A DNA stretch of 63,235 nt, filler included, from Dugesia japonica (taxonomy: Eukaryota): the NCBI GenBank assembly GCA_001938525.1. It is 5 parts of 5 records of this genome, joined end to end, with 100 filler letters (N's around TTAATTAATTAA, not from the genome) between each part and the next. Parts side by side here need not be neighbours in the genome. Positions count along the whole stretch, not along the records: positions 30,846 to 41,382 come from MQRL01386158.1; 4 more parts are not named here. One strand, 5' to 3'. Position 1 is the first letter of the stretch. Every line of letters begins with the position of its first letter. A model generated the notes under the pieces. That model searched no databases, was not told the origin of the DNA, and saw nothing but the letters and a program-made list of their open reading frames with translations. Made by a program: the position numbers and the translations under genes. Below are positions 18,380-49,116 of this stretch, one piece after another.

Positions 18380-18479
18380 NNNNNNNNNNNNNNNNNNNNN
18401 NNNNNNNNNNNNNNNNNNNNNNNTTAATTAATTAANNNNNNNNNNNNNNNNNNNNNNNNNNNNNNNNNNNNNNNNNNNN
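18380..18479. other. Artificial assembly spacer (44N-TTAATTAATTAA-44N)
   Basis: An identical 100-bp construct also occurs at 30746-30845, 41383-41482 and 52506-52605. The 12-mer encodes stops in all six frames. Confidence 0.95.
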
Positions 18480-20700: not shown

Positions 20701-21357
20701 CAATAACTAAAAATTGACTGTAGCCAAAATTTATTTATTCAATTTCAAAAGCAAATCTGCCTCGTTAATTCAGATATTAAAACTAACTCATAATTAATAT
20801 AACATGTAATTAATTATTTAAACTTTATCAAGTAAAATTAATTTAAAAGATTTCTATATTGGACCGCTGTGCACAATTTGAAGAACTAAACCAATTAACC
20901 TGGAAAATTAGATTTATGCTTTATTAAAATGTAATTGGAAAGTCTAATGATAAATTTAGTTATTTAAAGGAAAATTTGCAATAAAATAACTGGATTTCCA
21001 ATTTCTAAAATCATTTCAAAATTATTAATCTTTATAAAAAATTTTAATTATTAATGTTTTATTTGAAATAAGTCAATTTTGTACTTAGTGCTTACTTACT
21101 AGTATGTATTTATTTCATTGTTTCAATGATAAACTTTATGACCATTAGATGATACTAAAGTGGCCATTACTTTCATTAACTCGTTTTGTAGAGCTTTTCT
21201 AAAGACAAGCATTTCAATTAGGCATTTGAAAAATGAATCTTCTATTAAACTCTAAAAATTTTTTATCCTTGAAATAATAATGTCAAATAAAAAAACAGAT
21301 TAAAAAAAATTATAATAATAACGTAATAAAAAAACAGAAATTAAACACATTTTATTA

Positions 21358-22430
21358 TTAAAAATTAGCTATTCTCCTCAAATATTGTAATTTATTTTGC
21401 ACTTCATTATATTCTTGAACTGCCATAGATAGGGCTTCATGTAATCTTTTATATTTCTTATTTACTCTTTTTGGACGAGAAGATACTGCATTTGCTAATG
21501 TTAACCGATGACAATCAATATCTCGCTTTAATCCATCAAATAAATTCCACATAGTAGGATGACTGTGAAAGAACAACGAATTAAGAGCACTATGAAATCC
21601 TTCACAGCAGTTAGTTGTCTTGAGAGACTATTCTAGTGCTGTTTTATAATGGTTCCATAGCTTCATTGGAAATTGTACATTTCTCCCCGCAGGACCTTCA
21701 ATGTAATTAGTAAGAAAATAACTCAAAACTTTATTGTGACTTTCTTGGTCTGAAAGTTGATAAAAAAAAGATCTGGGGCTTTATCGAAAGTTCCATCTCC
21801 AAACAGTATATCTTCCTTTAATTCATTCAAAAGGTTTACGTGTTTCAGGTCCAAAAGTCTATCCGGAGAATTTGCCCCTGTATCATAAAGAACTAATTCC
21901 ACACACTTTTCTGGTATTAAAAAGTTAATTGATGTAGGACATTGTATAGACACATTTCTTCTATAATTCGAAAAGATTTTTTGCCAGACTAGATCTCTTA
22001 GGCATGTATGCCAATATTTCGTTGCTGACCTCAGAAAGCAATTCATCCATGATATTTCTTGGGGTCGAATTATTAACACTGATCGCCTGTTTCATTTTTC
22101 TTTTCATTGCTTTGAAGCTTGATTGTTAAGTACACTCTGACAATTTTGTTTGATTCGTTTCCTTTGATTTTCTATGAAGGAAACAGTGTTTTTTTCTTCA
22201 ATTTCACACATATAAAATGGTTTTACCTTCCATTTTTTGAGGGCAGGAATCATGGCAATGCTCGATAGGTAGCCGGATAATGATCTATTCTTCTGTTTTA
22301 ATAATTGCATTACACTTTGTAAGGCGTTTCTGTCTGCATCTCCATGTAATAACAGCATTTTTACACCTATAAAGAACATATTTCGTGTCCACTGTAGATC
22401 AATACTTGATTTCCTCTCTCTGTAGTGGAA
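21358..22430 (-). mobile_element. Mutator-like (MULE) transposase relic
   Basis: ILFGDGTFDKAPDLF (first catalytic D) and TTNCCEGFHSALN.LF.HSHPTMW (catalytic E region). Subterminal-type 16-bp repeats (aattttctatgtgagc) at ~22683-22736. Confidence 0.82.
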
Positions 22431-23539
22431 TATTTCATAATTTGAAATAAATTATAATATTATTTCAAAATTAATTAAAACAAACTGAATAAGTAAACAA
22501 TAATTTTTAAATAAATTGTTACAATTTATGTAAAAAAATAAAAATTTAAAATTTTATCAGTTTTCAATTTAGTCTTTAAATCACTACATAAGAATTTTGA
22601 AAGACGAAGAAATATAGGTAAAAAATTTAGATGATTTAAAAATTTGGCATAAAGTATCATATAATAAATTCATATTGTGCGTAATTTTCTATGTGAGCAA
22701 TTTTCTATGTGAACAATTTTCCAAGTGCGCAATTTTGTTGTGCTGTCTCTTATTTAAAATAATTTATACAAAGCATACCTTTATAAATGATATTTTGGGT
22801 ATATAACAAAACAACCTTAAATCGCAAAATTTTATATTAAAAGAAAGAAGCCACACAAAGAGAGAGGTTCTTTCAGTTAACTTGACTCAAATAATTCTAA
22901 AAAGCTATAAGTATTTAAACTGATTCTACATGTGCTTATTGTTAAACATACACATAAAAATAAATAATTATACAGATAAAAAAATAATCCCTACTTTTTT
23001 TTCTAAAATACACAGTAAAAATAAAATCAATAATAATAATATAACACCTGTTTAAATAATTGTGATAAAAATTTCCATTGCTTTAATCGATCAACAATAA
23101 CAAATACAATAACCAGAAATAATCCAATTATAAAAATAAAAATAATAAAATTATAAAATAATAAAATTAATAGTCATTTTGATTAATATACAAATCAAGA
23201 ATCAATAATAAAATAAATGTTGATAATTGGATAGGTTTTCTTTAACTCGAACTGGTTTCATTTTGAATATTGATTTGTTTGGTTTCGAATATTGATTGAT
23301 CTCATGTATGTGTATATGTTATGCGTGCATTATTGTATGTTTAAATCTCAACAGTAAACTGGTATAAAAATTTCAGTTGTTTAGAATTTTAAGTTGGTAT
23401 AGACTTTGATCGGGTATAAAATTATAGTTGGTTGAAAGTTGGTATAGGCTTTGATCCTTTGGAATTGTTGTAAAATTTTGATCTTAGTATCATTTGATAG
23501 AGAATTAAAAACTCTATACATTATCCAAACCTTTGCCAA

Positions 23540-25880
23540 CCAATAAATTATAGCCAAACAATGAATTTAGGGGAAAGGATTGAAGAGGCCATCAAGAACC
23601 TAAATGATAAAGGTATAATCCGGAAGTGTAATTCGCAATGGAATACGCCATTAATCTGTGTTTTGAAAAAGGAAAAAAAGGATATACAATTATGCTTAGA
23701 CTTTAGACAGCTCAATGCAATAACAGAAAGCATTGCTTTTTCCTATGCCAAATTTGGACAAAATGCTAGAAGCTTTGAAAGGTACGCAGTATTTTAGCTC
23801 AATAGACTTGGGAAATGCATACTACCAAGTGGAACTCAGTGAAGATTCTCAAGAAAAGTCGGCTTTTTTGACCAAACAAGAAAAATTTTGTTTCAATAGA
23901 ATGCCTTTTGGAATTGCAGCAGTACCAGGTACGTTCCAAGAAACGATGAATAAAGTAATTGGAAAAATAAAAGGAGCGATGGTTTATCTAGATGATTTTC
24001 TCATATTTACCGAAACAAAGGAAAAACACTATGAAATAATCAATAAAGTAATGACAGAAATTAAAAAGGCTGGTCTTAGAGTTAATCCGGAGAAATGTCA
24101 ATTCATGCGAAAGATTTTGACATTTTATTACTATTTTGGGACACGTTATCAGTAAATAAGATGTCAAAACAGATCCAACTAAAATAAAAGCAATTAAGTA
24201 CTTTGGTAAACCAAAATGCGTCAAGAAAATGAGAAGATTTTTAGGAATTTGCAATTACTATCGCAAGTTTATTAAAGATTATTTGAAAAAGCTAGATTGC
24301 TGGAACAACTGTGTAGTGGGCCAAGTAACAAGAAAATTGAATGGGCGAATGAATTAGAAATTTTTTTTAATAGAATGAAAGAAGCACTAATGATGTCTCC
24401 AATATTATGTTTTCCAGATTTAAATGGAGGAGTTATTTTGGACACGGGTGCGAGTTTTGATACGATTGGGGCAGTACCATTTCAAAAGGACAACAATGGA
24501 CCAGAAAGAGTAATTACATATGGGTCACACACAATGACGAGTCATGAGAAAGGATATTTTACGACACTGAAAGAATTGCCCACAATTTACTACTTTTGTA
24601 TTCATTTCAAACATTACTTACATGGAAAGAGATTTATCCTCAGAACAGACCATAAAGCCATCACTCTATGCTAAATACCAAGAAGCAGATTACATCACAG
24701 TTTCAAACCTGAATTAATTATTTGAGCAGTTTAGATATAAAATTGAAATATAGAAAAGGATCGCTTCGTACAAATGCGGATATGTTGTCAAGGAGTAAAT
24801 GTGATACATGTGCACAATGTTTAATGTCACATGAAGATCCCAAAAAAGGAAAATTAAAAACCAGGATGTTAAATAAAGTAGATATTCAAGAAGAACAAGG
24901 TAACTTTGGTGAGAATAATGAAGGAACATGGATACCTGATGATAAAATAGAAAAGGTTATAATTAGGATGCACCATCTTTTGTGTCATGCTGGAGCAGAA
25001 AAGGTAGCAGTGTATATGAAGCATAAATATAACGCGAAACATTTGTGAAGCAAAGTTCAAGAGGTTGTCCGAAGCTGTATAACATGCCAGAAAACTAAAG
25101 TGTTGACAACAAAAACGAAGAAAGAAACCAAAAAGACGCAGTCAGCCGAAATGTTTGAACTGTTATTTATAGATGTGTGTGGACCACTGCCGGAGAGAAG
25201 AGGTCGGAATAAATATGTTCTTGGTATAATAGACCAATGCACTAAGTATGCAGGATTGATAGCAATGACAAAACAAGATGGAGATACCATACGAAAAGCA
25301 ATAATGGAAAAATGGATATTAAAGTTCGGGTGTCCGAGAGAAATAAGAGTTGGAAGAGCATTTGAGTCTAAATCGATGAAAGATTTCGCAGCTGAACATG
25401 GAATTACCCTCAGGTTTTCGATTCCATATCATCATAAAACAAATGAGAAAATCAAGAGGCAGTTTAGAACTATACGGGATATGATTAATACAAGGTTTAA
25501 AGAAAGGGAAACCTCAGATTGGGCGGATGTATTGCCAGATATAAAATTTACCTTAAATGCTACAAAACAGAAAACTATCCAAAAAAGCCCTCTTGAAATC
25601 GTATTTGGGAAGAGAATAAGCAGAGAAAAATGGTACTAAACAGATACTCTAAAAGGGCACAAAGAGCAAGATGAAGAGAAATTAACCAAAANACAATTCG
25701 AGGTCGGCGATGAGGTTTTAGTGAAAGTTGAAACAAGAACCAAGATCGTTTTGAAGGATCTTATAAGATCAAAGGAAAGGTCCACGATAGACGTTACATC
25801 CTTGAAGATACAAACAGAAATAGTCTCGAAAGAAACATTAAGAATATCAAAAAACTTCTTAAAAGGGAGTTGTGAGTATG
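23540..25880 (+). mobile_element. Ty3/Gypsy pol (RT-RNaseH-IN) ending at a PPT and LTR start
   Basis: LCLDFRQLN, FSSIDLGNAYYQ, YLDDFL, LDTGAS, RTDHK, HHLLCHAG..C..C, FIDVCGPL, then aaaagggagt-TGTG at ~25861-25874. Confidence 0.92.
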
Positions 25881-27049
25881 TTTTAATCGAGTTGAAATTT
25901 TTGTGTGGTTGATGATCGTTTTTCTTGAAATCTTTTTTGAAAAAGATTTAAATTGAAATGAAAAATTAAATGACAAATAAATAATTGTTGTAAATTTTGT
26001 AATTAAATTTTAATAAATAAATTGAAAATTTGTCTTAAAATCTGAATAAAAAATCAAATGACTAATAAGTAATTGTTTTAAATTTTGAAATTAAATATTT
26101 ATACATAAATTGAAAATTTATTTTAAAATCTGATTTAAATTGATTTTAAAAAATCTTAAGAAACGATCACCAATTTAACAGTAATTTAATTTGTTTAAAA
26201 ACGCAATTACTGTTGTCAAAGTTATTATTTTAATAAATTTATGGAGCTAAGTTCTGATGTTAATGATTCGATGAGTTTTCCGAACTCACCTAACAATCAC
26301 TATTACTGAGCATTAACTTTTCATTTGTTAACATTATTATTTCTTACAGTGGTCCTTATTAATGCTATTATTTATTTTTGCTACCACTATCGCAGCCATT
26401 ATTATTATTGTCGTCTTTAACAAATCAGAAATTACTGTTCACTTTAAAAGGGAAATGTATTTTTATTTTACGATTAAAACCATTATTATAAATCATTATG
26501 AATTAAAATAATGAAACATTAATTAAACATTACTATAATGGTTCTTTACTAATAATTTTTAATTAATTATTTTAATTATTACTCAATATTATTAACAAAT
26601 TGCTACTATTTAACTATAAATATTACTAATCATTAAATTCATTACTGTTAAGTATAAAGAATTAATTAAAGAAAATTATATTATCATTCATTAATTACAG
26701 TATAAAATTTTTAATTTACATAATCTAAACAAAACTAACGTGAACTGCAAATCGATCCAAAGCAAGCACTCAGCGCAATTGACAATCACCGAGACAAATT
26801 TATCTAATTCCGATTGAACACAACTGAAATCTATCTATCTTATTCACACAATCGCGTAATAATATTTCACTCCAATTCATTGGCACACCTACGTAGGGTA
26901 TCATAGATTTCGTAATTGCACACACCTTCATAGATTTCGTAACTTCATTATTCCTGGGACCTTTCCTATATCATCCACAGATTTCTGAATCCGAAACCGT
27001 TGCAAAAATTTATTTTATAAATCACCTTTTGCTCCTTAGTATCAATGTA

Positions 27050-27850
27050 AAGTAAATTTATTTGATTCTATTTTTTGATTGATTTTTCTATCGTTCATAT
27101 TGGCTGAATTATTAAAGTCCCGATACCTGATTTCTTCTAATTGGTCAATATTTTGGGAATTACAAAATTGCTGGAATCCAATTGGCTAACCTTAAATTCA
27201 CGTAACGTCTTTCTTGATCGAGTTATGATTTTGTAGCTTTAATTTTCGGAATCTACAACGTTTTCTTAACTGCTGCTTTTACCTTAATGGAAAGCCTCCG
27301 TTTTCCTCTATTTTCGTTTTCTTGTAAATTAATTTCTTTTTTTCAATAAATCATTTTAATTTGCATGATTTATTTTATTCAATAAATTGATTGTTTATTT
27401 TTTATTTACTTCTTAATTAATTTATTAATTAGGTTCCCCTTTCTCGTCTCTAAATTAAAATTTAATTTAATTTAGGCATTTCTTTCCACAAATAATTCAT
27501 TTTATTTATTTTTTCCATTTGTAATTATTAATTTAATTCAATTTCTTTATTATTCTCAATAAATCCCCTGATACAATTACCATATGTCATTTTCTTTGTC
27601 TTCTCGGTCTTCTAGTGTCTTCTGTTATTTTCTTTCTTCGTTGGTTTTCTCGTTTCCAAGTTTCTGTTTTGTTTACTGGTTATTGCTTAAGTTTTAATTT
27701 TTTAATCTTGATTTTTCTTTAATTACTTCTTCTTCAACTAATATTTGGACTCCTTTGTTCTGGATTCTTTATTTCTCTTAGTGATATCTTCTTCTATTTT
27801 GTTACTATTTATTGTTATTATTATCTTACCATATCAGGTGTTCTACCCCA
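27050..27850 (-). repeat. Dispersed repeat homologous to 43200-43900 (+), probably LTR-element leader sequence
   Basis: The reverse complement of 27300-27420 aligns with 43630-43760 (attaattaagaag.aaataaaa...aaataaaataaatcat.caa.ttaaaatgatttatt). Confidence 0.65.
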
Positions 27851-30459
27851 TTAATTATATAATTAATCATAAATTATAAATAATAATAATTCTTCCAATA
27901 TTTATATACCATTATATGAATTAAAAGTTTCCTATTCATTGCCTACTATCATAAATGCTTTTTTAATATCGAAAATAATTTTTTAAAAAACAGGGCAATA
28001 ATTCATTTTAATTTAACTTTAATTTAATTTGTTTAAGTTTATTTTAATTATTATAACTACATTGATTTTATTTCCTCATTTGAAGATAGTCTTTCAGTTC
28101 TAATTATTTTACCCTTAATTATTCAAACTTTTTGTCTAATTGTACTAATACTCCCCGATTATATATGAAACCACATCACTATGGACATATATAAGCGAGA
28201 CAGTAATCTATCGATTCAACAGGAACTGAACAAGAATTAACAACTACCTCAAACTAAAATGGCTAAAAGACAAATACAAAATGATCAATGAACGCGAACG
28301 TCGAGTTCAGGCAAACAATAGATGGATAAAGAGAAAAAAACAAAGTCCCAGGGTTGGTTCAGAGATGGACCAAATAATCAACACCTGAACAAACTAAAGA
28401 TAAGCTTGAACTTTATTCTTTGTTTTATAAATTTCTCAATCATTATCAATTTTTTGTTAAAGACAATCAATTTTCCCTTAGACATTGTATAGATACTTTT
28501 AATTGTCCATCAATAAGTATAGATTTCATTGTTGTATGTTTCCAAATAGCGGCTGTGATGTCTTTGCTCTACTATCTACCTAATCTAACCTAAATCTTTC
28601 TAACTCTTTTCCATCCTAAACAAGTCGTTTTGGGATAGTAGTATTTTAAACAATGTATAAGTTATTTTTAATTTTCTATCGATTAATATAAGTTTCAAAG
28701 CTTTATGTTTAAAAATGGCGGCTGTCAGCTTATTAAATTTTAAATCTATAAAACTACCTTATCTTAACATTTCATTAGAAATATAATTGCACTAAAATGT
28801 TTCTTATCTAATTCCGCATCAGACACTGTCATGTTTGTTTTCTTAATATGATATAAATTGGACTTCGACTTTTATAAGTTATTTATCTTTAACCGCCATT
28901 ACAAAAAGGAAGGAAGCTCTTTAAGATATATGTTCAAGAGATAATACTATCTTACTTTTAATTTTCTATTAAAATTTATCGGTTTTNNNNNNNNNNNNNN
29001 NNNNNNNNNNNNNNNNNNNNNNNNNNNNNNNNNNNNNNNNNNNNNNNNNNNNNNNNNNNNNNNNAATAGTAGTCCTTTAGACAATGTATATCCAGATTTA
29101 GCAGTTCATCCTAGATATACCATCATTTATTCTAAAAAAGTAAAATAATGGCATGCAGAAAGAATTTAAGGTTTTAAGATGGTTTTTGGTGAATATCGTT
29201 CAATAGACTCCGCCCACCAGTATGAAAATAACACCAAAATGTGCTACTTCATCTTCCACATGTATAGATACCAAGTTTGATCAGATCAAACAAAATAAAC
29301 CCTATTTTTAAAAGTTTTTACCATTAAAACAACAAAAATGTTTTCTATCTGTATCTGTAAACCAAATTTTTAGATCAATTCCACAGGGGAGTTGATACTA
29401 TGCGCAAGAAGCTTTTTTCAATAGTTGGTCTTTAAAATTGTATAGACAGTTTTAAATTCTATATCGAATGATACCAAGATCGAAGCTGTTAGACCAATTC
29501 CAGAGGGTCAAGGCCTATACCAATATTTGACCAACCAGATTTCGAGAAATTATATATTAAGTCAAAGTGGTTACCACCTGAGTTCAAAGTTTTTACCCTC
29601 CTAACATTTTCTACCACTGAAATTTCTATACAAGTTTGCTGGCTTAGGAAGGAGAGTTGTACAGTGCTCTACCTACTACGGTCAAATTTCTACTTATGCT
29701 GACCGTTGAAATCTCAACAATTACCATATTATTTAGTTTTTGGATTTCAAAAAGTTATATTTCCGTGTGTAATTCCTAGATGCAATGAAATGGTACATCT
29801 TAATAAATTAATTTGTCTCAACTGTTCAATGTTTAAAATTTTAGGAAAGCAATGCAATAAAATATTTAGTTATATTAATATTTACACAGAAATTGGATAT
29901 TCTTATTATTAACCCTGTCATATTACGTTCCTCGACTTAACTTTTTTAGCCATCAATGATATCATCACCNACTTCATTTTACCACTCTGTAACTAATTAC
30001 TTATTATCTACATGATCGTTAATGCCGGCTTTTTATAATACTAATTGCTCATTAATATCACGCATTAGTGAACAAACTCTACTATTCAAATCATTATTCC
30101 TTCAATGAAGTTTAGAGTATGATAATAGTATTTATTGTGGTGACGACTACGTTATCATTATATTTTTCAAATGTCAAGTAGTTTATTAGTAAGTTTTTCT
30201 TACCACTTTCAGATGGTTTTCTTTTCATTGGCTAATATTTTGTAATTCCAAAACTCATTGATTTTAAAATAACAATAACAATAACATTCACGATTTTATA
30301 AGTTATGATTTTACTTTTAATGAAAACAGAGAAATAACAAATTNTTCTATAAATANTTTTAATTGTGGAAACAGTTTTATCTACTATTTATCTTTAATAA
30401 CAAATATTATTCGCAAATATTTAAATATTTGATAAATTGATTTTGAAATTTTTTAAATA

Positions 30460-30745
30460 ATCTAGTATATGGCCGCGCCTCAATTCGGTTGAATGATACA
30501 GAAAACAAGAGGGAATGAATACGTTTCTAATATATTTAATTTTCAATGCTTGTAGAAGTACAATATTTTCTGTTGTTCCATTGTTTGTGTACGTATAAAG
30601 ATTGCTTGGTTTGCCGACTTTAGAAGACTCAACTTATTATCCATAACAGAAGCAATCCGTCAAAATTTCAAAGCAATCGGTGAAAAACTTTCGGAGTTTA
30701 TCTATTTTAAATAAACGAACATTTACAATTTTATATATATATATA
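30460..30745 (+). mobile_element. Non-autonomous Helitron/Helentron-like (DINE-1/HINE-type) element
   Basis: 5' ctag...ggccgcgcc, core caaaatttcaaagcaatcggtgaa and 3' tttatatatatata; this architecture is typical of these elements. Truncated by the gap. Confidence 0.55.
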
Positions 30746-30845
30746 NNNNNNNNNNNNNNNNNNNNNNNNNNNNNNNNNNNNNNNNNNNNTTAATTAATTA
30801 ANNNNNNNNNNNNNNNNNNNNNNNNNNNNNNNNNNNNNNNNNNNN

Positions 30846-31561
30846 CTTCTAAATTTCACCAATATAAAGTTTGGTAATCGACAATCACCAAATATTTGTT
30901 CCTTATAAAATGATGTAATATCTTTGTTTTTATCGGGTAAACTGCATTTTGTTTGTTGAAATCCTATTTGATGTCCGACCAATACAGAAGGTTCGACACA
31001 TACTTGTCTGTACATCAATTTTGCATCCAACATTTGATATTTCGGTTCATAATTTGCTGATTCTAAAAACATTCTAGTATTGGCTTTTTTCATTAGAATA
31101 TGAACATTGGCACTCGGAATAAGATATTTCGGTTGATCCATAAAATCTAATTACAATGAACCACCTAGAGACAATGATTTGGATTTCTTAATAGAAGCTT
31201 TTCTATTTTTATCTGATCCATACCACATTGCTGCAAGACATATATTTGTACTTTCTCCATTATAATTTAAAATTGTTTCAATCAATGCTTTTTGAATATG
31301 AGTTCCATTCCCACCCTCAATTTTCATTGTATTAAATGACATAATTACAACTTTAAATAACGAATGAAATATGTAATTGCTAGGTACCACATCAGAATTG
31401 TCAGGCAAATCTTTACCAGTTTTATCAACTACTTTTACTTGCACATACAATAAAGTATCATTCAAGTCCAAGTATTCTGTTTGGGATCCATTTATATAAA
31501 ACTCTTCATCATTTCTATCTTCCGAAATTGTATTCATTTGAAACATCCTCAAATGCACCAT
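30846..31561 (-). pseudogene. Polinton double-jelly-roll major capsid protein (PY/MCP), 5' part
   Basis: EFYINGSQTEYLDLNDTLLYVQVKVV...VPSNYIFHSLF, QPKYLI and RLPNFILV motifs; frameshifted and cut by the spacer. Confidence 0.85.
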
Positions 31562-31921
31562 ACTGGTTTTTGTTGATTTGTTAAAATATTCCTTATACTA
31601 CTTGGTATTTTGCTTGTTATACTTGCCGGTAATATTTTTTCTACTTTTGGTTTCATGTTAGTTGCTCCGCTAGGCAATGAAGACACTACATTCAAGTTCA
31701 GCCAGTGCATTCGATTTTAGTGTTGGTAATAGCTTTCCATTATTAGCCAGTACATTCTGAGCAGTTTTCATACCAAATGAACCAATTCGTCTAAGAATAA
31801 GACGCGCAAATCTACCTATTGTTCTCAACCAACCGGAACCATACTGTTTTCCTAAAAAATAAGGTAATTCTCCACCAGCTTGACTACTGCTATACAACCA
31901 CACAATATAGGGATTATTCAT
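31560..31921 (-). pseudogene. Polinton PW-like small core protein
   Basis: QAGG.LPYF.G.QYGSGW...I.RFA..ILR motif, in the usual position just upstream of MCP. Confidence 0.7.
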
Positions 31922-32935
31922 TTATTTTTCGAAAATGTAAAGTAAATGTGTTTTAGAGTCTTTTGCAAACTTGATTAATTTTGTTATCATCAAAAATATT
32001 TATTTCTATATTTTGTATTCATGTTGTAGTAAATAAATTGGATTATCGACTATAATTTGAACTACCTCATCATTTTCATGCTTTTCTATCCATACAGATT
32101 TCAAAAGAGGAACTTTAACATCTCTTACAGTTATAGGTTCGGCAATACTACTATAGATGAACATTTGTTGGTGTAACTTAATTATTTTTGGATTTCTAAT
32201 ACCTTGCAATATACCATCCTTCAATTCTGCATGTGAATATTGTTGTTTTTCTAATCCCAAAGTTTTTGGTAAGACTTCATGAAATGTAATAGTTTTGATA
32301 TCATTTCTTAGTGACATTTTAAATAGATTATTTCTTTTGAGACTAATTGTATAAAATAGTTCAGAAGCGCTTTCTGTTAAATATTTACTTAATTCTTCAA
32401 TTTGTGTTATGTATAATTCATCTTTCAACTATATAGTATTATAACTTACTTTAGAATATTCTATTTTAAATTTTACATATTCTATTGGAGAATTCTCTTT
32501 AAATGCTGTATACAGAAGAAGAAAATGTCCGGGTTCCATTTGGTTAATCTTATATGAGAATCCAAATCTAATTGCAGTTGTTTCATTTTCAAATATGGCA
32601 ACATATTAATATTCACATTTAATAGTTAAATATCCACTTATTGCTATATAGACATTATTATTTTCATTTTTACTTACACTCAAGGATTGCTCTTTGTGTT
32701 CGATTGTAACGGTTATTTAATTTGGTATATTTCTTGTAGACATGTATTGAATTTTAGACTTGCTATATAATGGAAATGTTTGATAAACAAAAGTAAAATC
32801 TAACAATAATACTTCCCACTTTCCATCCATAAAAATTGAATTTTGGAGCTCAACAATGAATTTTCTGGCATTATTATTCGAATGAACAAGAGGACAGCTA
32901 TTATTCGATAAAATTGTATAGAAATTATTTAATGT
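31920..32935 (-). pseudogene. Polinton minor capsid protein (penton/PX)
   Basis: N-terminal NFYTILSNN...NN..KF.VEL...I..DGKWEV.L and C-terminal MFIYSSIAEP..V.DVKVPLLK motifs; frameshifted. Confidence 0.82.
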
Positions 32936-33335
32936 CTTTATTAACTAACTGTGATGCTAATATCCAAGTAGATTTTTCATATCCAACACACTTTACATAA
33001 TATTGTTTATTCTTTTTTGTTCTTTTCGATTTTAAAATTTTTTCGATTTTATATATAATAGGAGGTGGAATGACTTGTAATTCTTGCTAATAAAATTTTC
33101 CTTCCACTATATTATTCTCATAATCTTTAATTACATACATGACCGGATTTTGTTTTGTATTTGTTTTAGATATTTGAAACACTTCATCGTTCAGACTGTA
33201 TGCAAGTTGACCAATAACCACTTTTTGGTCTTTGTTTTTGTCCTACTTTCATCAATTTCTTTTACGCCACGAAAACCTGGGGAATTTTTTGAGTCCATCC
33301 ATATCGTCTTTAGTTTGCCCATTACAACCATTAGA
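32930..33335 (-). pseudogene. Polinton retroviral-type integrase with the catalytic core deleted
   Basis: N-terminus LKTIWMDSKNSPGFRGV is joined within ~400 bp to the C-terminal YVIKDY....VEGKFY..ELQ and the chromodomain YKIEKILK...YYVK.VGY...TWI. Confidence 0.78.
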
Positions 33336-33455
33336 TGAAAATTTGAAATCAAAATTAGGTAATGATTGTACACCACCCATTGTTGATTTTGAATGAGTTT
33401 ATTTTAGTACTGATAATATAATTGGTAGTAATGCTACTATAAAACCAACCATTGT

Positions 33456-33776
33456 TTATTTAAAATGATTTAATCCTAGTGCTTCTAATGCAATTGGTAG
33501 TAATGCTGCTATAAAACCACCCTTTTGACCAAACAAATTTTTTCTCATTAATCTCCTATTTTTGTGTATTGACAAGTGATAGTAATGGTTTTTTATGTCT
33601 TTTCAATTTTCGTTTTCTAGCTTGGCTAATATTTACATTACCGTTAACAACATTTACGATAATTTCTAATAAATCGTCAATTACAAACGATGGGAATGAT
33701 TGCAGAATTGTCATTCTCATTGGTTTTGGAGATTCAAGCAGTACAAAAAAAATGGAACACTTTTTTCTAATTTCAT
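33456..33776 (-). pseudogene. Polinton small virion protein ending QKGGFIAALLPIALEALG
   Basis: LLEIIVNVVNGNV.I...KRKLKRHK..L and the QxGGF..LL motif typical of Maverick PM-like proteins; frameshifted. Confidence 0.72.
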
Positions 33777-33807
33777 TTTACTTTAATATTACATATAATT
33801 TGATTGT

Positions 33808-33990
33808 TTATAGTGATTTCCATTTTTGGTTTGCATTTTTAAGTTTTTTTCCATAAAAACTGATTTTTCTTTCCGATTTATGCTTCTTTCTTTTACCGAC
33901 ACCCTTTTTTCTATTAGGTTTTTTAGACGTTCGTTTACGTTTCACAATTGATTTTACCTGATCAATTACAACCTTTTTAAATTTCGTCAT
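33808..33990 (-). CDS. Small Lys/Arg-rich putative DNA-condensing core protein
   Basis: KRKRTSKKPNRKKGVGKRKKHKSERK, directly downstream of the ATPase. Confidence 0.45.
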   Translation of the reverse strand: MTKFKKVVIDQVKSIVKRKRTSKKPNRKKGVGKRKKHKSERKISFYGKKLKNANQKWKSL

Positions 33991-34006
33991 TTTATAAATA
34001 AAATAT

Positions 34007-34636
34007 TTACATCGTTTGTTTAAACACCGTGACACCGTTAGAATTGAAAAAATCTGTCCGTATCCTCAATTCATCTGGACATTGTTGTGTAAAATCTAGA
34101 AAAAGATATACATGAGGGTTTACCGTAGCATCCTGGAATGATTCAAAAAGAAATTGTCTATTATTAGGATACGCTTGTCTTGCTAGAAAATCGACAACCG
34201 TTTGATTCCTCGGATTTTTAAAAAAAACCAAGTATTGAACATTAAAATTACGGGTTCTGTAATTTCCTCCTTGATAAAACAAATTTTGAGTAATGAATAT
34301 AACAATTACATTAAAATGTCTTGATATTTTTGTAAATAAATTATTAAAGTCCTTTTCTTTGTTTGCCTTCTGATAAAGATTATCTACTACAATAACATCA
34401 CTCGGTTTCAATCTCTTGCTCCAATTTTTATCAAATCCATTTATAAATTTTATTTTTATATTACAAAATTCCGATTTCGTTAATCTATGCTCTTCATGGG
34501 CACCTCTATGCCAGTAGATGTTGTTAAATTTTGATTTCAATAATTTAAATAGAAATAAAGTTTTTCCGCTACGACAAGGACCAACAATTTGATAAAAGGC
34601 ATCATTTTTTAAATCCATTTTATAACATTGTATCAT
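34007..34636 (-). CDS. Polinton A32/FtsK-like DNA-packaging ATPase
   Basis: Walker A GPCRSGKT, Walker B VIVVDNL, SRH motif, FITQN, FKNPR and YLFLDF. Confidence 0.92.
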   Translation of the reverse strand: MIQCYKMDLKNDAFYQIVGPCRSGKTLFLFKLLKSKFNNIYWHRGAHEEHRLTKSEFCNIKIKFINGFDKNWSKRLKPSDVIVVDNLYQKANKEKDFNNLFTKISRHFNVIVIFITQNLFYQGGNYRTRNFNVQYLVFFKNPRNQTVVDFLARQAYPNNRQFLFESFQDATVNPHVYLFLDFTQQCPDELRIRTDFFNSNGVTVFKQTM

Positions 34637-34905
34637 TTAATACATTGTTTATAATGTAACTGCTTTTTTTTAAATAAATCAATTACTTTAATTTTACAAA
34701 CACTTATATATATATATATATATACGCTAACAATTATTAGAAATCATAATTAATGTTAGTCAATATTTGTAGTCAATATCGAATGACATAATTTGAATGA
34801 GGCGAATTCAGACAATTTGAAAAGTATGTATTTCAATAAAATAAATGATATAAACAAAATTAATTAAATATTTAATATATTTAATTAATTATTTCCTGAA
34901 TTTAA

Positions 34906-35352
34906 TACTACATTATTAATTACATAGGTAAAGTGTCACAAGACGTAACAAGCAAAATGAAATTTCCCATTGATAAACCTTCACAATTTGTTGACAAAAG
35001 CGGGAAATATATAATCATATTTTTTAAATCAGGAAATTGTGGAATCATGGGATGCAAACATCCGATTGAAATAGATAAATTACAGTATGATATTAAAGAC
35101 ATTCGGTTACAATCGTTAACATTCGTAATCAATTTGGGACTTGCGATTAATTTGTATAAATTGGCAATGATAACAAAATGCTGGTTTGAACCAGAATGGT
35201 TTCCAGCATTACGTCTTACAAAATGTGATCCTATATGCGTTAAAGTATTTTCATCATGAAAAGTTGTCATACTTGGTCTCAAGAATTTATATTATCAAAA
35301 ATATGTGGATAATATAATTTCATATTTGCATAATTTGATTGATAAATTATAA
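34906..35352 (+). pseudogene. TATA-binding-protein (TBP)-like gene inside the Maverick
   Basis: Two TBP-like half repeats: IIIFFKSGNCGIMGCK, then LQSLTFVINLG..INLYKLA...FEPEWFPALRL....ICVKVFSS*KVVILGLK. One TGA (35257) sits at the conserved Gly position. The start codon is not resolved. Confidence 0.8.
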
Positions 35353-35514
35353 AATATAACTACAATTTGCAACGTGCGTGCTGTTAGAATGCAAATAAAC
35401 AAAGTACTATTGCTTACTCAAATTGAATTGGTCAATTTTGATTTGTTGAAATTATCACATTGTAATTTAATATATATACAAGAACATTTGTAATCAATTT
35501 TAGTTCAAAAAATC

Positions 35515-35978
35515 ATGTACATTTACGAGCAACCAGAATTACCAACATTTGATGATAATATTGTCAATGTAATGGACGAAGAAACTGGCCAAGAAGAAGA
35601 TGTGAATATGGAGGAACCTTATGAAGAGATTGAAAAAGAAGAATGGTCGGAATGGAATGGGGATCCATATAATACAGGGAAGAGTATTTTTAAATTTTTA
35701 TTATTTTTTGTTATTTTATATTTATTTTTCTAGAAATTGTATTGGCAATTCTTTTTGAGGAGTTGGATCATTTAAAGGACGATGCGATGTAGTGGCCAGA
35801 GGATACAATATGCTCAGAAATCAAGGAATATACGGATATCGATATCGAATTAGTTCTAGCCGATTATTCCTCAATTGCAATGATATGTCCATACACATGT
35901 ATTGCGTGTATGAGAAGAAATATGTTCAAAGCTTTGAACAATTACATTGACAAACCAAAAATAAGACGACTGGAATAA
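35515..35978 (+). pseudogene. Two-exon Maverick cargo gene A (unknown function, acidic N-terminus)
   Basis: Phase-1 intron 35684-35733 (gtattt...ttctag). Exon 2 is open to TAA 35978 except for one TAG at 35790. Homologous to gene B. Confidence 0.6.
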
Positions 35979-36137
35979 TTTTATTAAATAAATATTGTAT
36001 TTTTTTTAATTTTTTATTAAATAAAGTTTGTTTTTTATTAAGTAAATTACTTTTTATTAATAAAAAAATGAGTTATTTTAATAAGAAAATTAATTTTCAA
36101 TAACATTTTAGATAGTTACATTTATTAATGATAACAA

Positions 36138-36600
36138 TTATAACAGTTTATCAACTTTTCGAACAGTTTTTATTTTCCATATTAGTGTAGCTTCATTATT
36201 GAATTTCTTGATTCCTTGTATTTCAATTATAATCATCCATTTATCTTCATTTACATATCNNNNNNNNNNNNNNNNNNNNNNNNNNNNNNNNNNNNNNNNN
36301 NNNNNNNNNNNNNNNNNNNNNNNNNNNNNNNNNNNNNNNNNNNNNNNNNNNNNNNNNNNNNNNNNNNNNNNNNNNNNNNNNNNNNNNNNNNNNNNNNNNN
36401 NNNNNNNNNNNNNNNNNNNNNNNNNNNNNNNNNNNNNNNNNNNNNNNNNNNNNNNNNNNNNNNNNNNNNNNNNNNNNNNNNNNNNNNNNNTGTTTCTTCA
36501 GGAATTTCATTTTACGCTGATGAAAATCCACAGTTTTTCCACATTCAATATTAATATTCAATACTTTATCAATTGTAAGAAATAATTGTTTTTCTCCCAT
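36138..36600 (-). CDS. Putative OB-fold ssDNA-binding protein (interrupted by an N gap)
   Basis: Starts MGEKQLFLTIDKV. The piece after the gap reads WMIIIEIQGIKKFNNEATLIWKIKTV, resembling the terminal beta-strands of viral SSB OB-folds. Confidence 0.4.
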
Positions 36601-37003
36601 TTGGAAATAATGATATATTTTTAAAGGTTTTATTTGTATACATACTTGTACTGATTAAGATTGATTTGATTGGTTGATTTTGACGAATGTTTAGATGCCA
36701 ATTACATAGTGATTGGTTAGTCTTCCAATACTCATGTATGTACGATTTTAATTTGCTGTAATTTGTATTAATTGGAGAAATTTAAAAATTAAATCATTTT
36801 TTAAATAAACGATATTGACGAAATTACAGAAAAAATGGCTGAATTAAAAAATGCAAAACAAATCAATCCGCTGACATTATTTTCGATAAAGGTTAATTAT
36901 TTGTTTTTTGATTTAATTAATTAATTAATATATTTAGAACGAATAATCGGCGTTACTGGTGAAATTGCAGAAAAAATAGCTCAGTTGAAAATCTTCTATA
37001 AAA

Positions 37004-37346
37004 ATGAATAAAATTCAAACAGTTGATATATCTGAGGAGAAGAAACTTTTATTGGAAATAGGTAACCTTATTTATAATTCATTTTAATAATTTATATATA
37101 TACATTTTAGATCTAATAATTGATCTATTAGATTTATTTTTCCCAAAGTTAAAAAACGAATCAATTTATTGGGCGCAGGAGATTTATTGGTATAAAATGA
37201 AGAATTATACCAACATCGATGTTGATGAAGCTATGTGGATTTACAATAAATATCAAAAAAAAGATGAAATGATCAAAATGGATTTAAAAAGAAAATTTAT
37301 TAATTTATTTATTCCTGCAATCAATAAATTTTATGAAATGTACTAA
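37004..37346 (+). CDS. Spliced Maverick cargo gene B (paralogue of gene A)
   Basis: Phase-1 intron 37062-37110 (gtaacc...ttttag); exon 2 is open to TAA 37346. A further upstream intron is possible at 36892-36947. Confidence 0.6.
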
Positions 37347-37899
37347 ACTTATTAGTTTAATGTAATAAATGTTTCTTAATCAGAGTTTTATTTAATATTT
37401 CATCTTTTTAATACAAAAATAGTTTCTATAACGTGAAATTTTAAATAATTTGTTATAATACAGTTTAAATAAAGAAACGTTGATAAATTACTGGAGAATA
37501 TGTTGAGTGTCATTGTTTAAAAGTAACTTTAATATTGTTAAAAAAACTTCAAAAAATAAATAAATAAAAAAACAAGAAATTCAAAAAAAAATTTTTAAAT
37601 TACTTTGAAAAAAAAAAAGTTTTCCACTAAACAAAAATTTAAACCAGAATTTCAAAATTAAATTTTAAAAGTTATTTGTTTTCGTGTACTACCTTTTACC
37701 TTAAGTAAAATTTGACTTTAAATATTTTCCAAAATTTTATATAAGATTTTCAAAGAAAATTTTTTAGGTTATATGTTTCCGTGAGGGGGGAGTACTTTAA
37801 TTGACCTTTAGAAAATATTTACTTTAAGATTTTCGTAAAAAAACATTTTAAAAATAATTTATAAAAAATATTTTTTTAATTGGGGTACCCTATGACTCA

Positions 37900-38002
37900 T
37901 TGCCCCTCTAAAAAATTCCCTCGGTGGCTCATCGGGTGAGTAGGGTGAGGGTAGGCCTCTCTCTCGACGGGCCCTTGTTTGGTGCGCTTATATCTACCTA
38001 CT
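37900..38002 (-). repeat. Maverick terminal (TIR) end
   Basis: GC-rich subterminal block; the minus strand begins AGTAGGTAGATATAAGCGCAC. Confidence 0.7.
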
Positions 38003-38860
38003 CAATAGATTTTTCGTAACATAAAAGTTTCTTAGAAATAACTCGTCTTTGTTGTAATAAATCATAAGTAAAAGAGGAAATATTGAACGCGAAACAAAGG
38101 AGTGTGAGTATACTCCAAGTATGCGTTGGGAGTCAACTGCTTCATTCCAAAAGCCTAACTAGGGACGTTAGGTTAAATTCTTCACGGGGTCCACTGAGGG
38201 CTGACTTTTTCCTTCAGCCATATATTTTCTATCATCAACTCATGGAAACCCAACATAACAAAGATTTTTTAGGGAAATTCGTCGTGGGACAATTCGTGGT
38301 GATTTATCTTTCTAGGAACGACGGTAAAAAACATTATTTTTATTTAAAATTTTATTTTTTGTTAAGACATCATAATTACTGAAAAATTTTAAATTACTAA
38401 TAATGTTTTTTGTAGGAAAATTAAGTACGATAAATGGTTAGATAGAAAAAGGTGATTGCAAATAAAAAACAAAAATGAGGAAAATATCAGGTTAATTTTG
38501 GTTGGTATTAGCTCAATCTGGTGGATTTTTTTCTATTTTGCGACAATTCTGGTCACTTTTTGGTGATTTTAGGTGATTTCTCGATATGATCGGTTTTAAG
38601 TGATTTGGTTGATAATTTGCTCTGTTGTTTATTTTTAGCTAATTTTGAAAAAAATTGCTCATCAGGGTCAATTTTGGTCGAATTTAGGTGATTTCTTTAA
38701 AATTTTCAAGGTTTTAAATTTAAAAATACGATTAAAAAGTTCAGTTTGTTTAAATATTTGAAATTTTTTTGGGAATTCAAGTGACTAATCCTAATTTCGA
38801 AAATATTTTGAAAACTTTTTAATCGAGATTTTTACATCAAATAATCCAGAATTTGATTAG

Positions 38861-41382: not shown

Positions 41383-42219
41383 NNNNNNNNNNNNNNNNNN
41401 NNNNNNNNNNNNNNNNNNNNNNNNNNTTAATTAATTAANNNNNNNNNNNNNNNNNNNNNNNNNNNNNNNNNNNNNNNNNNNNTTCTTCACAAAAAATTTA
41501 TTATAAAGTAATAAAATAAACCACTTATTTTAAACAATATAACTAACCATAATAATCACCTTTTGATTTGAATTTATTAATTTTTTTATAATAATATATA
41601 ATTTATACGATTAACACATAATATTAATATTATAAATAAGTCATTTCAAATAAAAGCTTCAATCAAAATTTATTTTTTTGGTTTTTGATAACAATTTTAT
41701 ATTTCGACTTTGTTTTCGACAGGAATTGGCTTTCGTCTAAATTCTGTAAAACGACCAATGGTTACGTCCAACAATTATTCTAGCAAAAAATTCTAATTGT
41801 AAAAAAATTATAAATAATGTAAAAATTTTTTAATTCTTATTGAAATTAATTTTTTTAATAAAATGAAAAAATATAAACTTCAATATTTTCTAACAAACGA
41901 GGTTTATTTTTTGTAAATTTTTATCGACAATCATACAATGATAAAGTGTTAAGTGTTGATAATTCCGTTCATCGTGACAAATGGAGCATTTATTGTTTAG
42001 AGCTTTCTCCTGCATCATCGTTACAAAAAACCGGCAATTTATTGTTGTACTCTCATAACACTGAGATCAACTTGTCTCTGAGTTCACCAGAACTTCTGAT
42101 GTAATTGGCTTTAAATATTCATACCACCCAGTGTAATAAACCTTTCAGTTCATTTTGGGCTCATTTAATTTAAGTTCAGTTCATTAATTAAAACAACATC
42201 TGAATCAATTCAGCCTTTA

Positions 42220-44994: not shown

Positions 44995-45355
44995 GAAAGA
45001 AGCATTGATGAAGCCACTAATTTTAGTGTTTCCAGATGTCAGGAGAGAATTCATACTGGATACGGAAGCAAGCTACAATACATATTATCACAAATTGGCA
45101 ACAATGGACAAGAAAGGGTGATAGCGTATGGATCACACGCAATAACTAACCACGCATTGTGGTATTGTATAACAAGAAAGGAGTTGCTGGAGATATTCTA
45201 TTTTCTCAACCATTTCAGTCACTACTTATATGGGCGAAGATTCACTTTACGATTAGTTCATAAGTCGATTACGTTTATGTAAACTACAAAGAAACCTATA
45301 ACGGCACAGTTTCAAAATTCGATCAATTACCTAAGTGAATTAGACATTGATTTAC
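44995..45355 (+). mobile_element. Ty3/Gypsy RNase H fragment, same family as 8754-12245
   Basis: Aligns closely at nucleotide level with the reverse complement of ~10040-10415. Confidence 0.85.
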
Positions 45356-45389
45356 AGGGCACATTTTGAACAATTGTAGCAATAAACGG

Positions 45390-47135
45390 AAAATGGCTAA
45401 GAAAGAAACAACACAAAGTCGCCCCAGTAAGGAAGGGGAACAAGAAAATGCAGTGGCCAACTCAATTAAACTTTGCATGCTATAGGTGGAAACCGCAGAA
45501 ACAATAGAACCAGACGACTTCACAGAGGTAGTGAAAAAGAAGAAAAAGGGAAGAAAAACAATTGAAGAAATGAAAACCAGAAGCCAGACGTCGTAGGGAA
45601 GCACTCTAAATATACAGGAAGCCGAAATATATCAAACATACCCTAGAACAGGTAAACTATTTAACAAGGACGAACTCAAATCGAGAGTCAAAACTATCGT
45701 CAAACAACGATCTTACAGATCAGATGGAAGAATTGTTATGGGTATTAACGTTACAACTAAAGGAGTTGAAAGAGGTAACCAATGCAGTACAGAAAGTATC
45801 AGTAAAAGCAATAGTAGAAAATATGCTCAAGTCAAGGTTATCGAAATTAAGAGAACAAGAAAACAGGACGAAATTTGCAATGTAATTGTTGTTAAAAACC
45901 TGGAATGAAACGAAGGAAGTAATAATGAAGCCCACAATACCCAAACAAAAAGAAAACTACAAGTGTAGTGAATATGGCAAACTTGGTCATCTGTCAACCT
46001 GGTGTTGGAATAATAGACTATGTGAATATTGTGGGGAATCAGATCACCCGAAGAAACTATGTTGGAAAAAACCATGCAAGTTATGTGGTGGTTTAGAACA
46101 TACAGAAAAACAATGAAAAAGAGAATCAGATATCGAATCTATCTTTAAAAGAGAAGGATGCTAGAGATTTTGATAAAAGGACCACACGATAGTTTTATGC
46201 GGATTAAAATGCAACAAATGTAGCCGCAAAAGACATACCGAAATAGTATGCCAACCGGACAAACAATGTACTAAGTGTAAAAGGAGAGGACATCTAGCAG
46301 AACAGTGTGGTATCCATAGATGCATCAACTGGGGTAGAACCAAACACACCATTAGAAGGTGCCGATTTAAAGAAAGTAGTGAAAACTTAGTTGTAATTAT
46401 AGAGAGATCAAACAAATTATGTCTGTTACAAGCGTCCAATGAAGAGGATGAAACGCAACCTACTTATATACTAAAAGAAAATCAACAAACGACATACAAA
46501 GAACAGGATAATCACCGGGCAGTACCAGAAGACTGGCAGAAAATACTTAATGCATATGATAATCGGATATCAAGATTAGATGAAGCTTTACGGTTGAGTC
46601 AAGTACAATGCCAAAATTTCAAACTCTTAGCAGACACCGCAATAGATGACAAACGAAATGAACTGGTATTGCACGATATAGCTATGACCTACAAAAGAGA
46701 GTAATTTTCAGCCTAAAAAATTGAGAAGAACATCGAGCATCATTTAACCAAAGAAAAGGACTGAGACAGCAAAGCTAGGAGCTATCTGTCAGGCTAGGAC
46801 ATGAAAAACAAAATACTAGGAATTAAAAAGACAAACCAAACTAATTGACCAATCGCGTAAATCATATCTAGACGAAAACGAAAACCTGGTGGAAACGTAC
46901 AAGGCACAATTATTAAAAGAAGAACCAACCGAAATGGAAGAAATGACATGGACAAAACTCCAATTGTTGGAGGAAGAACAAAGAGAGACTAATAAAAGTT
47001 GTTAAAAATGATTAAGGATAGAGAAACTTTCTACGAAAAATTAATGAAACCGCAACAAAACTGGAAGGCTAGGGCAAATATGAATCCACCAATGCATACA
47101 AGTAACCAAGTTCAATTACCTGGGACAAAAAATAA
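45390..47135 (+). pseudogene. Decayed gag/ORF1-like gene with ~7 CCHC zinc knuckles and a coiled-coil tail
   Basis: CSEYGKLGHLSTWC, CEYCGESDHPKKLC, CKLCGGLEHTEKQ*, CNKCSRKRHTEIVC, CTKCKRRGHLAEQC, CINWGRTKHTIRRC and one further broken knuckle. Confidence 0.7.
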
Positions 47136-47350: not shown

Positions 47351-49116
47351 ATTGGCGTGTAATTAAAAAAAATAAGTAACGCCATTTAAAATAAAACTTT
47401 ATTGCTATATATTTGGACGGATTAACCTGCTGTCTTCAGAAAACATTGAAATAAATGAGTTTATTCAGTCTGTAATATTCTAACAAAGATTAATGCGATT
47501 ATACTAAATATAAGATGGCTATAATTCTTAATTTTTTAAAATAAAATTCTTAATTTTTAAAATTTTTAACGACTTTTCAATAAAATTAATTTACATAATA
47601 ATATTTTATTACTGTTACCTATAAAATCAAAGATGTTTTACCAACATATTTAAATTTTTAATTTTAGATTATATTAAAATTTTAAAACCTATGAAAATAG
47701 AAATTTATTTCAAAAATTAAATTAAATAAAAACCTTTGAAGTAAAAATTTTTTTAAATTCATGTTGGGTTGCTAGGCTTTTGATGTTGTTTTAATATTTG
47801 ATTTTAGTTTTCTTTATTTTAAATATCTTGATCATAATTATATCTCCTGCATATCTTTTCTGTCTAGGGGATGACACCTAGCAACCACAGAAATTTATGC
47901 TACTCTTTCTAGTAACCCGATCTTCCTTTTCCTGGATTCAGCGGACTATGCTTTATCCCGTCTTAAATATGCAATTTCTATTTAATCCGGCTCTCAATCT
48001 ATTGATGTTATTTGTTGTTATTAACAATAAACCTTCCAATTAAACAATTTACAGAGAAACTTTATTTTAGATGCAGGCGTTTACTCGTCGATTTTCATGA
48101 TTTATTTTTCTTTTTGGATCTCCTTGGTTGGTCTTGACACCTCGGTAAGTATACGAATTGTGGAAATCAGTACTCCTTCCTGATCCGCGTAGGTCCTAAT
48201 AATATCTGACATGGCTCGGCATGTATGTGATAGCGCCAGTTCTCTTTCTTTCATTTTATCAACTTTACTTCTGAGTTGTGCATTTCTTATTTGCATTTTG
48301 TTCTGATGTCGGTCATTAAGGTATCATTGAGTTTCCTTGCATCCATCACTGTAATTAATTGATATGAAATATTTTATAATTTTAATTATCTTTATTCAAG
48401 TATTTTTGCAAACGTAAAATTATTCATCTTATTATTTAACAATATTATTCAGAAGTCGAAATCAATGTAATTTGGTACTGAATTTATCTTTAAATTGCTT
48501 CATTTATTTATATTGCTGTTGTCATATATGAATGAAAATCAAAGACAAAACAATAATCAAACTAAAACTATATTGTATATAGATTAAACTTCGGTTATTC
48601 ACACATTGTCAATTTCATCCAACGGTGCAAGAATTTGCGATAAGATAAAGTAATTTTGCAGTTTNNANTAAAATCTTGATTTATTTTCAAAAATATTTAT
48701 AGGTTGTGTATTTTATTTATTAAAGTGAATTTTAAAAAATTTTTTACTTCGAAGGTTTTTATTTTATTTTATTTTTTGAAATAAATTTCAATTTTTATAG
48801 GTTTTAAAAAATTTTAATATAATTTAAAATTAAAAAATTTAAATATGTTGGTAAATCATCTTTGATTTTATAGGTAACAGTAATAAAATATTATTTTGTA
48901 AATTAATTTTATTGAAAAGTCGTTAAAAATTTAAAATTAAGAATTATAGCCATCTTATATTCAGTATAATCGCATTAATCTTTGCTTGAATAATACAGAC
49001 TGAATAAACTCATTTATTTCCATTTTGTCTGATGATGACGGCTAATCCGTCGAAATATATAACAATAAAGTTTTATTTTAAATGGGGTTACTTATTTTTT
49101 ATTAAACATTTGCCAT
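47351..49116. repeat. ~400-bp inverted repeat arms around a ~960-bp spacer (foldback-like)
   Basis: 47351-47762 is the reverse complement of 48725-49116 with scattered mismatches. A related single arm lies at ~6480-6660. Confidence 0.85.
48102..48350 (-). pseudogene. Unknown coiled-coil ORF family, copy 1
   Basis: KMKERELALSHTCRAMSDIIRTYADQEGVLISTIRIL; homologous to 50571-50867. Confidence 0.5.

Follow-up and report, generated by a model that had tools for sequence, protein, structure and literature searches.

The window analyzed here is a stretch of 63,235 nucleotides from Dugesia japonica (GenBank assembly GCA_001938525.1). It contains four scaffold spacers of 100 bases each (N runs around TTAATTAATTAA, at 18380-18479, 30746-30845, 41383-41482, and 52506-52605), whose flanks need not be contiguous. 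A pseudogene for a compact TBP, hereafter referred to as the mini-TBP, lies between the second and third spacers, among genes and signals that appear to belong to a decayed Maverick/Polinton element. The features of this region are as follows.

30846..31597, minus strand: broken major-capsid-like gene, cut by the scaffold gap at 30746-30845 and assigned through its ESM Atlas neighbors
31670..31921, minus strand: small virion gene, presumably PZ/Cupiennin-like; no family match
32006..32944, minus strand: broken minor capsid (penton)-like gene, its penton identity presumed from an N-terminal motif; homolog in metagenome locus L002 (E 8e-10), no Pfam match
32925..33230, minus strand: broken chromodomain fragment; Pfam Chromo E 4.5e-4, under the cut-off
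33460..33776, minus strand: broken virion gene that we take to be PW/GasderminX-like; no family match
33804..33812, minus strand: TATAAACAA, candidate core promoter of the PW/GasderminX-like gene, 36 bases before it
33808..33990, minus strand: short lysine/arginine-rich ORF, with a one-mismatch promoter word at -34
34007..34636, minus strand: A32-like packaging ATPase; 209-aa open reading frame with a visible Walker A motif, Pox_A32 E 1e-3, under the curated cut-off
34645..34653, minus strand: TATAAACAA, candidate core promoter of the ATPase, 35 bases before its second ATG (34618)
34705..34724, no strand: (TA)10 microsatellite between the two divergent genes, most likely without significance
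34849..34857, plus strand: TATAAACAA, candidate core promoter of the mini-TBP gene, 54 bases before the start position of its relatives
34906..35352, plus strand: mini-TBP pseudogene, 148 codons plus stop, identified by a Pfam TBP match, 64-76% identity to 10 intact relatives, and a count of decayed sites
35257..35259, plus strand: in-frame TGA that breaks the mini-TBP gene at codon 118, within the last conserved turn
35515..37346, plus strand: small accessory ORFs between the mini-TBP gene and the end of the element; no convincing family match
37901..38002, no strand: putative right end, GC-rich, with a Maverick-like end motif; partner repeat not found in the window

Gene content and gene order, with each single match weak, suggest that this element is a decayed and partly assembled Maverick. 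DJR-like, Capsid_N, and Sputnik MCP clusters are among the ESM Atlas neighbors of the capsid-like gene at 0.96-0.98, with each family on only 10-15% of cluster members (recognition 2059) and no Pfam match for the gene itself. Because the scaffold gap cuts this gene, the rest of the element may be unassembled. Neither a six-frame search of 25900-38100 nor searches of shorter pieces gave a match to protein-primed PolB. The chromodomain fragment is read as the C-terminal end of an integrase; no catalytic core was found in it, no rve match was found in 25900-38100, and the fragment had no significant match to the integrase of a second element in the window. The stretch 26000-30745 had no Pfam match and was not counted within the element. 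Virion modules of this kind are reported in animals only, according to the accessible text of PMC8502044.

The sequence-only reading had placed a TBP-like gene divergent from the packaging ATPase and inside a terminus at 38002. The divergent arrangement was confirmed, with a gap of 269 bp between the ATPase frame and the mini-TBP gene. The terminus stood in part. The last 100 bp before 38002 are 55% GC, versus 14-23% in the five preceding bins, and the end reads AGTAGG inward, a motif similar to the AGT/AG ends reported for vertebrate Mavericks (PMC8097293, accessible text). Neither a left inverted repeat nor a 6-bp target duplication matching this end was found within the window, and we treat the right end as putative because its partner repeat was not found there.

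Two further observations concern the minus-strand genes. A 72-bp tandem duplication (81% identical, 33372-33515) lies at the end of the PW-like gene. The starts of the ATPase and of the basic ORF share the context TATAAAATG (34618-34624 and 33990-33996, minus strand), which would be a translation context or an initiator-like signal.

Decay of the mini-TBP gene

The frame, its coordinates, and the peptides quoted in the sequence-only reading were correct: the gene has 148 codons before its terminal stop and is interrupted by a single in-frame TGA. Its resemblance to TBP was likewise upheld and goes well past what chance would give. Translated with X at the stop, the gene matched Pfam PF00352 with E 2.1e-9 (37.5 bits, cut-off 22.9); the match spans residues 65-127, which by sequence search is the C-terminal half only. 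A PDB sequence search returned 33 matches, all of them TBPs or TBP fusions (best E 6.8e-11).

The copy had been described as probably inactive on account of its TGA, and its decay goes beyond that single codon. There is no ATG at the start position of the relatives, the first in-frame ATG being codon 18, and 7 of 59 columns that are invariant in the relatives are altered, including the stop and two DNA-facing positions. The same 59-column count gave 0-4 differences in nine intact relatives and 7 in one. Because of the stop, the missing start, and the altered invariant sites, the mini-TBP gene of the window is a dead copy, the fossil of a Maverick/Polinton gene. The acidic stirrup pair (E186 and E188 equivalents) is present in this copy too.

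Predicted fold and residue anatomy of the mini-TBPs

An intact relative, P0002, which is 76% identical to the window mini-TBP, was modeled with AlphaFold2 from 59 sequences, and statements on structure refer to this protein. The model (pLDDT 96) matched yeast TBP by Foldseek with E 3e-9, and the matches listed, from a total of 44 at E 0.001 or better, were all TBP chains. VIA-align placed P0002 residues 1-148 on yeast TBP 66-240 (Z 13.2, rmsd 2.8 Å), and identity to solved TBPs in structure alignment was about 20%. This span indicates that both lobes are present, and the model predicts a two-lobed TBP saddle fold in one chain. The TBP fold anticipated by the sequence-only reading was thus recovered, as were both of the half-repeats that it had claimed, the C-terminal one by sequence and the N-terminal one by the model.

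Residues were numbered as in yeast TBP through family member P0116 (offset 41), a motif-anchored sequence alignment rather than a residue-level structural one, and counts refer to rows having a residue among 144 family representatives. Three intercalating phenylalanines are kept (F116 in 116 of 117 rows, F190 in 140 of 142, and F207 in 136 of 136), as are P191 (119/142) and N69 (86/91). The column equivalent to F99 by repeat symmetry is variable, with no aromatic among the eight commonest residues in 107 rows. Other positions have conserved replacements, namely V122R (116/118), T124M (131/132), N159S/T (140/140), V161T/S (139/141), L205N (133/136), V71N (73/91), I194R (100/142), and V203C (98/138). 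Judged from these alignments, the DNA face of the family appears to be conserved and more polar. Three of the replaced positions, I194, V203, and L205, are the ones changed in the altered-specificity mutant TBPm3 (PMC1636458, accessible text).

The positions of E186 and E188, acids that bind TFIIB according to the accessible text of PMC7221094, are both acidic in 132 of 142 rows. The same text assigns TFIIA, TAF1, Mot1, and Brf binding to basic N-lobe residues, three of them on helix H2. Spacing from T124 to Q158 is 21 residues in P0002 versus 34 in yeast, and the P0002 model has no helix between strands 45-51 and 64-77, the H2 region. Across 132 rows the median spacing is 24, with 33 or more in nine rows, and the region is longer in deeper-branching members. 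From these values we infer that H2 was lost in the subclade of the window copy and shortened in most other members.

A family of compact relatives

The ten intact relatives comprise nine proteins of 144-155 aa and one partial of 101 aa. When 1.84 billion representatives were searched with a profile, 187 clusters scored E 1e-10 or better; six ordinary two-lobed TBPs were removed from the best 150 of these, which left the 144 representatives, clustered at 50% identity, used above. With a wider profile, 419 proteins reached E 1e-8 among 1048 candidates. All of the matches listed from this profile, at least 120, carry Pfam TBP and stem from assemblies of JGI, ENA, or Logan. None of the 20 family proteins whose clusters were looked up had an informative name or an NCBI accession. 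By these searches, the mini-TBPs form a large unnamed family of ~150-aa proteins. Seven of ten 90% clusters that were looked up contain 8-21 slightly different members, which fits a multi-copy mobile gene.

Searches of IMG/VR with a pair of alignments, with a pair of DNA patterns, with the ATPase, and with the penton-like protein of locus L002 yielded no relative. Five loci found by pattern (L003-L007) were rejected as chance matches. In prokaryote genomes, one pattern had 0 matches and a looser pattern had 26, none of them family members. Among the sequencing runs listed, 20 of 24 had small shares (0.05-0.18), and no RNA run was among them.

DNA context was obtained for two relatives, in metagenome loci L001 and L002. 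L002 carries its mini-TBP gene directly after the homolog of the penton-like gene of the window, and no Maverick core gene was found in the 2 kb of L001. Direct linkage to Maverick genes was therefore seen at two of three loci (the window and L002), and the linkage for which the sequence-only reading had proposed a check was seen in L002 and not in the 2 kb of L001. Independent Maverick linkage of the family, as read from gene neighborhoods, appears thin but present. PDB sequence searches with the L002 penton-like protein and with the ATPase returned nothing useful, and a single-sequence fold of the L002 protein had pLDDT 35.

Some family members and neighbors had unusual tails. In L001, a 229-aa protein with an acidic tail and no Pfam match is encoded at 1283-1969 on the minus strand, facing the mini-TBP gene; the tail recalls single-strand DNA-binding proteins. 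P0357 is a mini-TBP fused to an acidic-tailed domain weakly similar to this protein (E 0.02). Seven members (P0024, P0034, P0051, P0053, P0095, P0140, and P0142) have long low-complexity C-terminal tails, which may be read-through across an overlapping downstream gene.

Relationship to cellular TBPs was analyzed in a quick IQ-TREE run with 55 rows. Forty were family rows, made up of alternate members of a set of 70 full-length representatives together with four close relatives and the window copy, and 15 were other TBPs (10 eukaryotic, 3 archaeal-type, and 2 unclassified, by labels that are mostly ours), without TBPL1/TRF2 or giant-virus TBPs. A branch with a length of 1.45 changes per site and an SH-aLRT of 99 set all 40 family rows apart from the other 15. 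In this quick tree lacking TBPL1/TRF2, the family was not nested within eukaryotic TBPs. The family thus appears to be set apart from cellular TBPs by a long, supported branch, which argues against a recent host retrocopy, the alternative against which the sequence-only reading was to be judged.

A candidate promoter word

The word TATAAACAA occurs five times in the 63-kb window. Three occurrences lie within the element, all in sense and 35-54 bases before a gene. Ten element starts were examined: two more are preceded by the word with one mismatch, and five, including those of the penton-like and capsid-like genes, lack it even at one mismatch, several of these five being eroded and chosen by us. 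In a de novo test on the window alone, 227 of 3000 AT-matched random sets shared a 9-mer in 3 of 10 segments, and 30 of 3000 did so when the word had to contain three kinds of base. As a discovery from the window alone, the word is marginal.

Locus L002 was searched with the 7-mer TATAAAC fixed, a test that was not blind. The exact 7-mer precedes two of four genes (at -44 and -39), a count reached by 0 of 20000 null draws, and the other two genes are preceded by TATAAAC with one mismatch. No exact word was found in L001. The second Maverick-like element of the window, which has no TBP match, had the word within one mismatch at 0 of 8 approximate starts. Of the 229 occurrences of TATAAA in the window, only 14 continue with C. 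In the TATA box, recognition of the 3' half belongs to the N-lobe (PMC1636458, accessible text). The C of TATAAAC falls in the half that is read by the lobe without F99 and with V122R and T124M, a coincidence that is suggestive only.

A (TA)n tract in the divergent gap had also been pointed out. It exists, as (TA)10 at 34705-34724, and was rejected as a promoter signal, being an ordinary microsatellite; it was given no weight because the window has four such tracts with at least five repeats. The informative word is TATAAAC(AA).

Possible role of the intact protein

On balance, we think it probable that the intact protein bound the TATAAAC boxes of the element, docked host TFIIB, and brought Pol II to the packaging and virion genes, while being deaf to the host regulators of TBP. 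The mini-TBP would bend a TATA-like box, since the equivalents of F116, F190, F207, P191, and N69 are kept. The word that it reads would differ from the usual box, because the rest of the DNA face has conserved replacements and F99 is gone from the lobe responsible for the 3' half, the part of the box in which the candidate word carries its C; TATAAAC would then be an element-specific TATA variant. Docking on host TFIIB is suggested by the retention of both stirrup acids and by the lack of any TFIIB-like Pfam match in six frames of 25900-38100, in L001, or in L002. With helix H2 shortened or gone, the protein would escape control by TAF1, Mot1, TFIIA, and Brf, and the outcome would be recruitment of Pol II to packaging and virion genes. 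Against this reading, TATAAAC includes a TATAAA box, which host TBP could recognize on its own. The wider proposal, that a widespread Maverick lineage has a private one-protein switch of 150 aa, stripped of its regulatory helix, retooled for TATAAAC, and still docking host TFIIB, is more tentative, and we regard it as possible rather than probable. We know of no smaller two-lobed TBP than the 150-aa mini-TBP.

The mini-TBP might instead be a decoy or repressor that damps host or early element genes by sequestering TFIIB or occupying TATA boxes, with host TBP driving the TATA boxes of the element. The TFIIB stirrup is indeed among the best-kept surfaces, loss of H2 would strip activator and TFIIA contacts along with the inhibitor contacts, and the candidate word contains canonical TATAAA and precedes, in one copy, the mini-TBP gene itself. 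We nevertheless think a decoy unlikely, as a pure TFIIB sink needs no DNA face with near-invariant novel residues, and the word has a C at position 7 that is rare after TATAAA and stands before packaging and virion genes. More doubtful is an arrangement like that of giant viruses and herpesviruses, with activation of element genes through a viral co-factor (a TFIIB-like protein or adaptor encoded by the element) or through another polymerase route such as Pol III. In its favor, the viral TBPs known so far mostly have TFIIB-like partners of viral origin, incompatibility with TFIIB is predicted for KSHV ORF24 (PMC12529657, accessible text), and the present element, besides being incomplete, contains accessory ORFs with no assigned function. 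Yet both stirrup acids are kept in 132 of 142 rows of the family versus about 40% conservation at C.L3.2 in viral TBPs (PMC7221094, accessible text), the searches named above gave no TFIIB-like match, and Brf1 uses the H2 surface, which is reduced in the family.

That the mini-TBP was a DNA-bending architectural protein for replication, integration, or packaging seems improbable to us. Minor-groove bending is a conserved property of TBP, and the gene adjoins the packaging ATPase here and a penton-like gene in L002, but such a role leaves the retained TFIIB stirrup and the promoter-like spacing of the word unexplained. A host TBP/TRF paralog or retrocopy that came to lie inside the element by chance is largely refuted, and we give it very little credence. 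Maverick neighbors at only two of three loci, and a tree from which TRF2/TBPL1 is absent, leave some room for it; against it stand about 20% identity to solved TBPs versus 64-76% to the ten intact compact relatives, the long supported branch from cellular TBPs, and the 90% clusters with their 8-21 slightly different members.

Comparison with known TBPs

With cellular TBP (PF00352; PDB 1ytb and 2z8u) the mini-TBPs share the two-lobed saddle, F116, F190, F207, P191, N69, and the acidic TFIIB stirrup. They differ in being about 27 residues shorter, in the DNA-face replacements, in an overall identity of about 20%, and in lacking F99, so that three of the four intercalating phenylalanines of cellular TBP are kept. 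The basic N-lobe helix H2 of cellular TBP is absent in the subclade of the window copy. The family offers a natural experiment that may show which surfaces of TBP can be lost.

Giant viruses and herpesviruses are known to encode TBPs. The beta- and gammaherpesvirus mimics (KSHV ORF24, HCMV UL87, and EBV BcRF1) resemble the mini-TBPs in being viral TBPs with a polar DNA face, and ORF24 also has polar residues at V122, T124, V161, and L205 (PMC12529657, Table 1). In the accessible text of that paper, the mimics are held to read the variant box TATT and to use host Pol II, and are described as large multidomain proteins in a six-protein complex, without the TFIIB acids and with direct Pol II contact. 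The mini-TBPs, in contrast, are bare ~150-aa saddles that keep these acids. With its polar replacements and retained acids, the family would join a herpes-like remodeled DNA face to a cellular TFIIB stirrup.

Foldseek also matched TBP folds of Nucleocytoviricota (Heterosigma akashiwo virus, mimivirids, and asfarvirus B263R; best E 3e-8) and, from Chionoecetes opilio bacilliform virus, a protein of 169 aa labeled "putative TATA-box bind protein" (E 8e-3). These viral TBPs are 8-20% identical to the mini-TBP, mostly longer, and usually accompanied by a viral TFIIB. Nucleocytoviricota TBPs also usually occur alongside a viral RNA polymerase, which Mavericks lack. The accessible text of PMC7221094 reports that viral TBPs mostly lose the TFIIB and regulator signatures, dropping the contact with host TFIIB and bringing their own TFIIB, a pattern that the mini-TBP family counters. 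Its main text and four supplements, as far as accessible, make no mention of polinton, maverick, or virophage.

In the literature searched, a TBP-like gene of this broad class of viruses appears so far only as a figure label. The adintovirus paper of Starrett et al. 2021 (PMC8502044) has "TBP" in a figure legend on MELD viruses and related elements, as a label that occurs once in the accessible main text and is absent from the readable supplement. A Maverick TBP family, its reduced anatomy, or a promoter word was not found described in this literature, most subscription journals and Repbase reports being outside its reach. The interpretation given in the sequence-only reading was supported overall, with a TBP fold and homologs that are not host retrocopies, and needed correction on the TA tract and on this printed precedent.

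Mavericks encode capsids, and their virions have not been seen (PMC8097293, accessible text). How their genes are switched on becomes a question testable by ordinary binding and reporter assays, given a dedicated TBP and a candidate word. A private switch of this kind, if real, would be the equivalent, in one protein, of the late-gene complex of herpesviruses. It would also provide a first entry point to the activation of virion genes in Mavericks, and it would constitute an orthogonal TBP-promoter pair of natural origin.

Other features of the window

A second, different decayed Maverick-like element, with no TBP-like match, lies at 52600-59800. The following pieces were located in it.

55890-56655, plus strand: ATPase-like
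56697-57563: rve integrase
57627-57989: PLA2-like gene (PF08398, E 1e-6)
58784-59467: jelly-roll capsid (PF21738, E 1e-7)

Penton-like and protease-like pieces are also present, and the element fits an Alpha-class virion module. Decayed pieces of LTR retroelements (RT, RNase H, integrase, and zinc knuckle) lie at 9800-12400, 15500-25900, and 45000-45400. At 61427-62082 on the plus strand, a ubiquitin-like frame (E 2e-6) adjoins a protein kinase frame (E 4e-11), and the two probably represent host gene exons. A probable non-autonomous DNA transposon is marked at 47367-49100 by long imperfect inverted repeats that are separated by about 1-1.6 kb.
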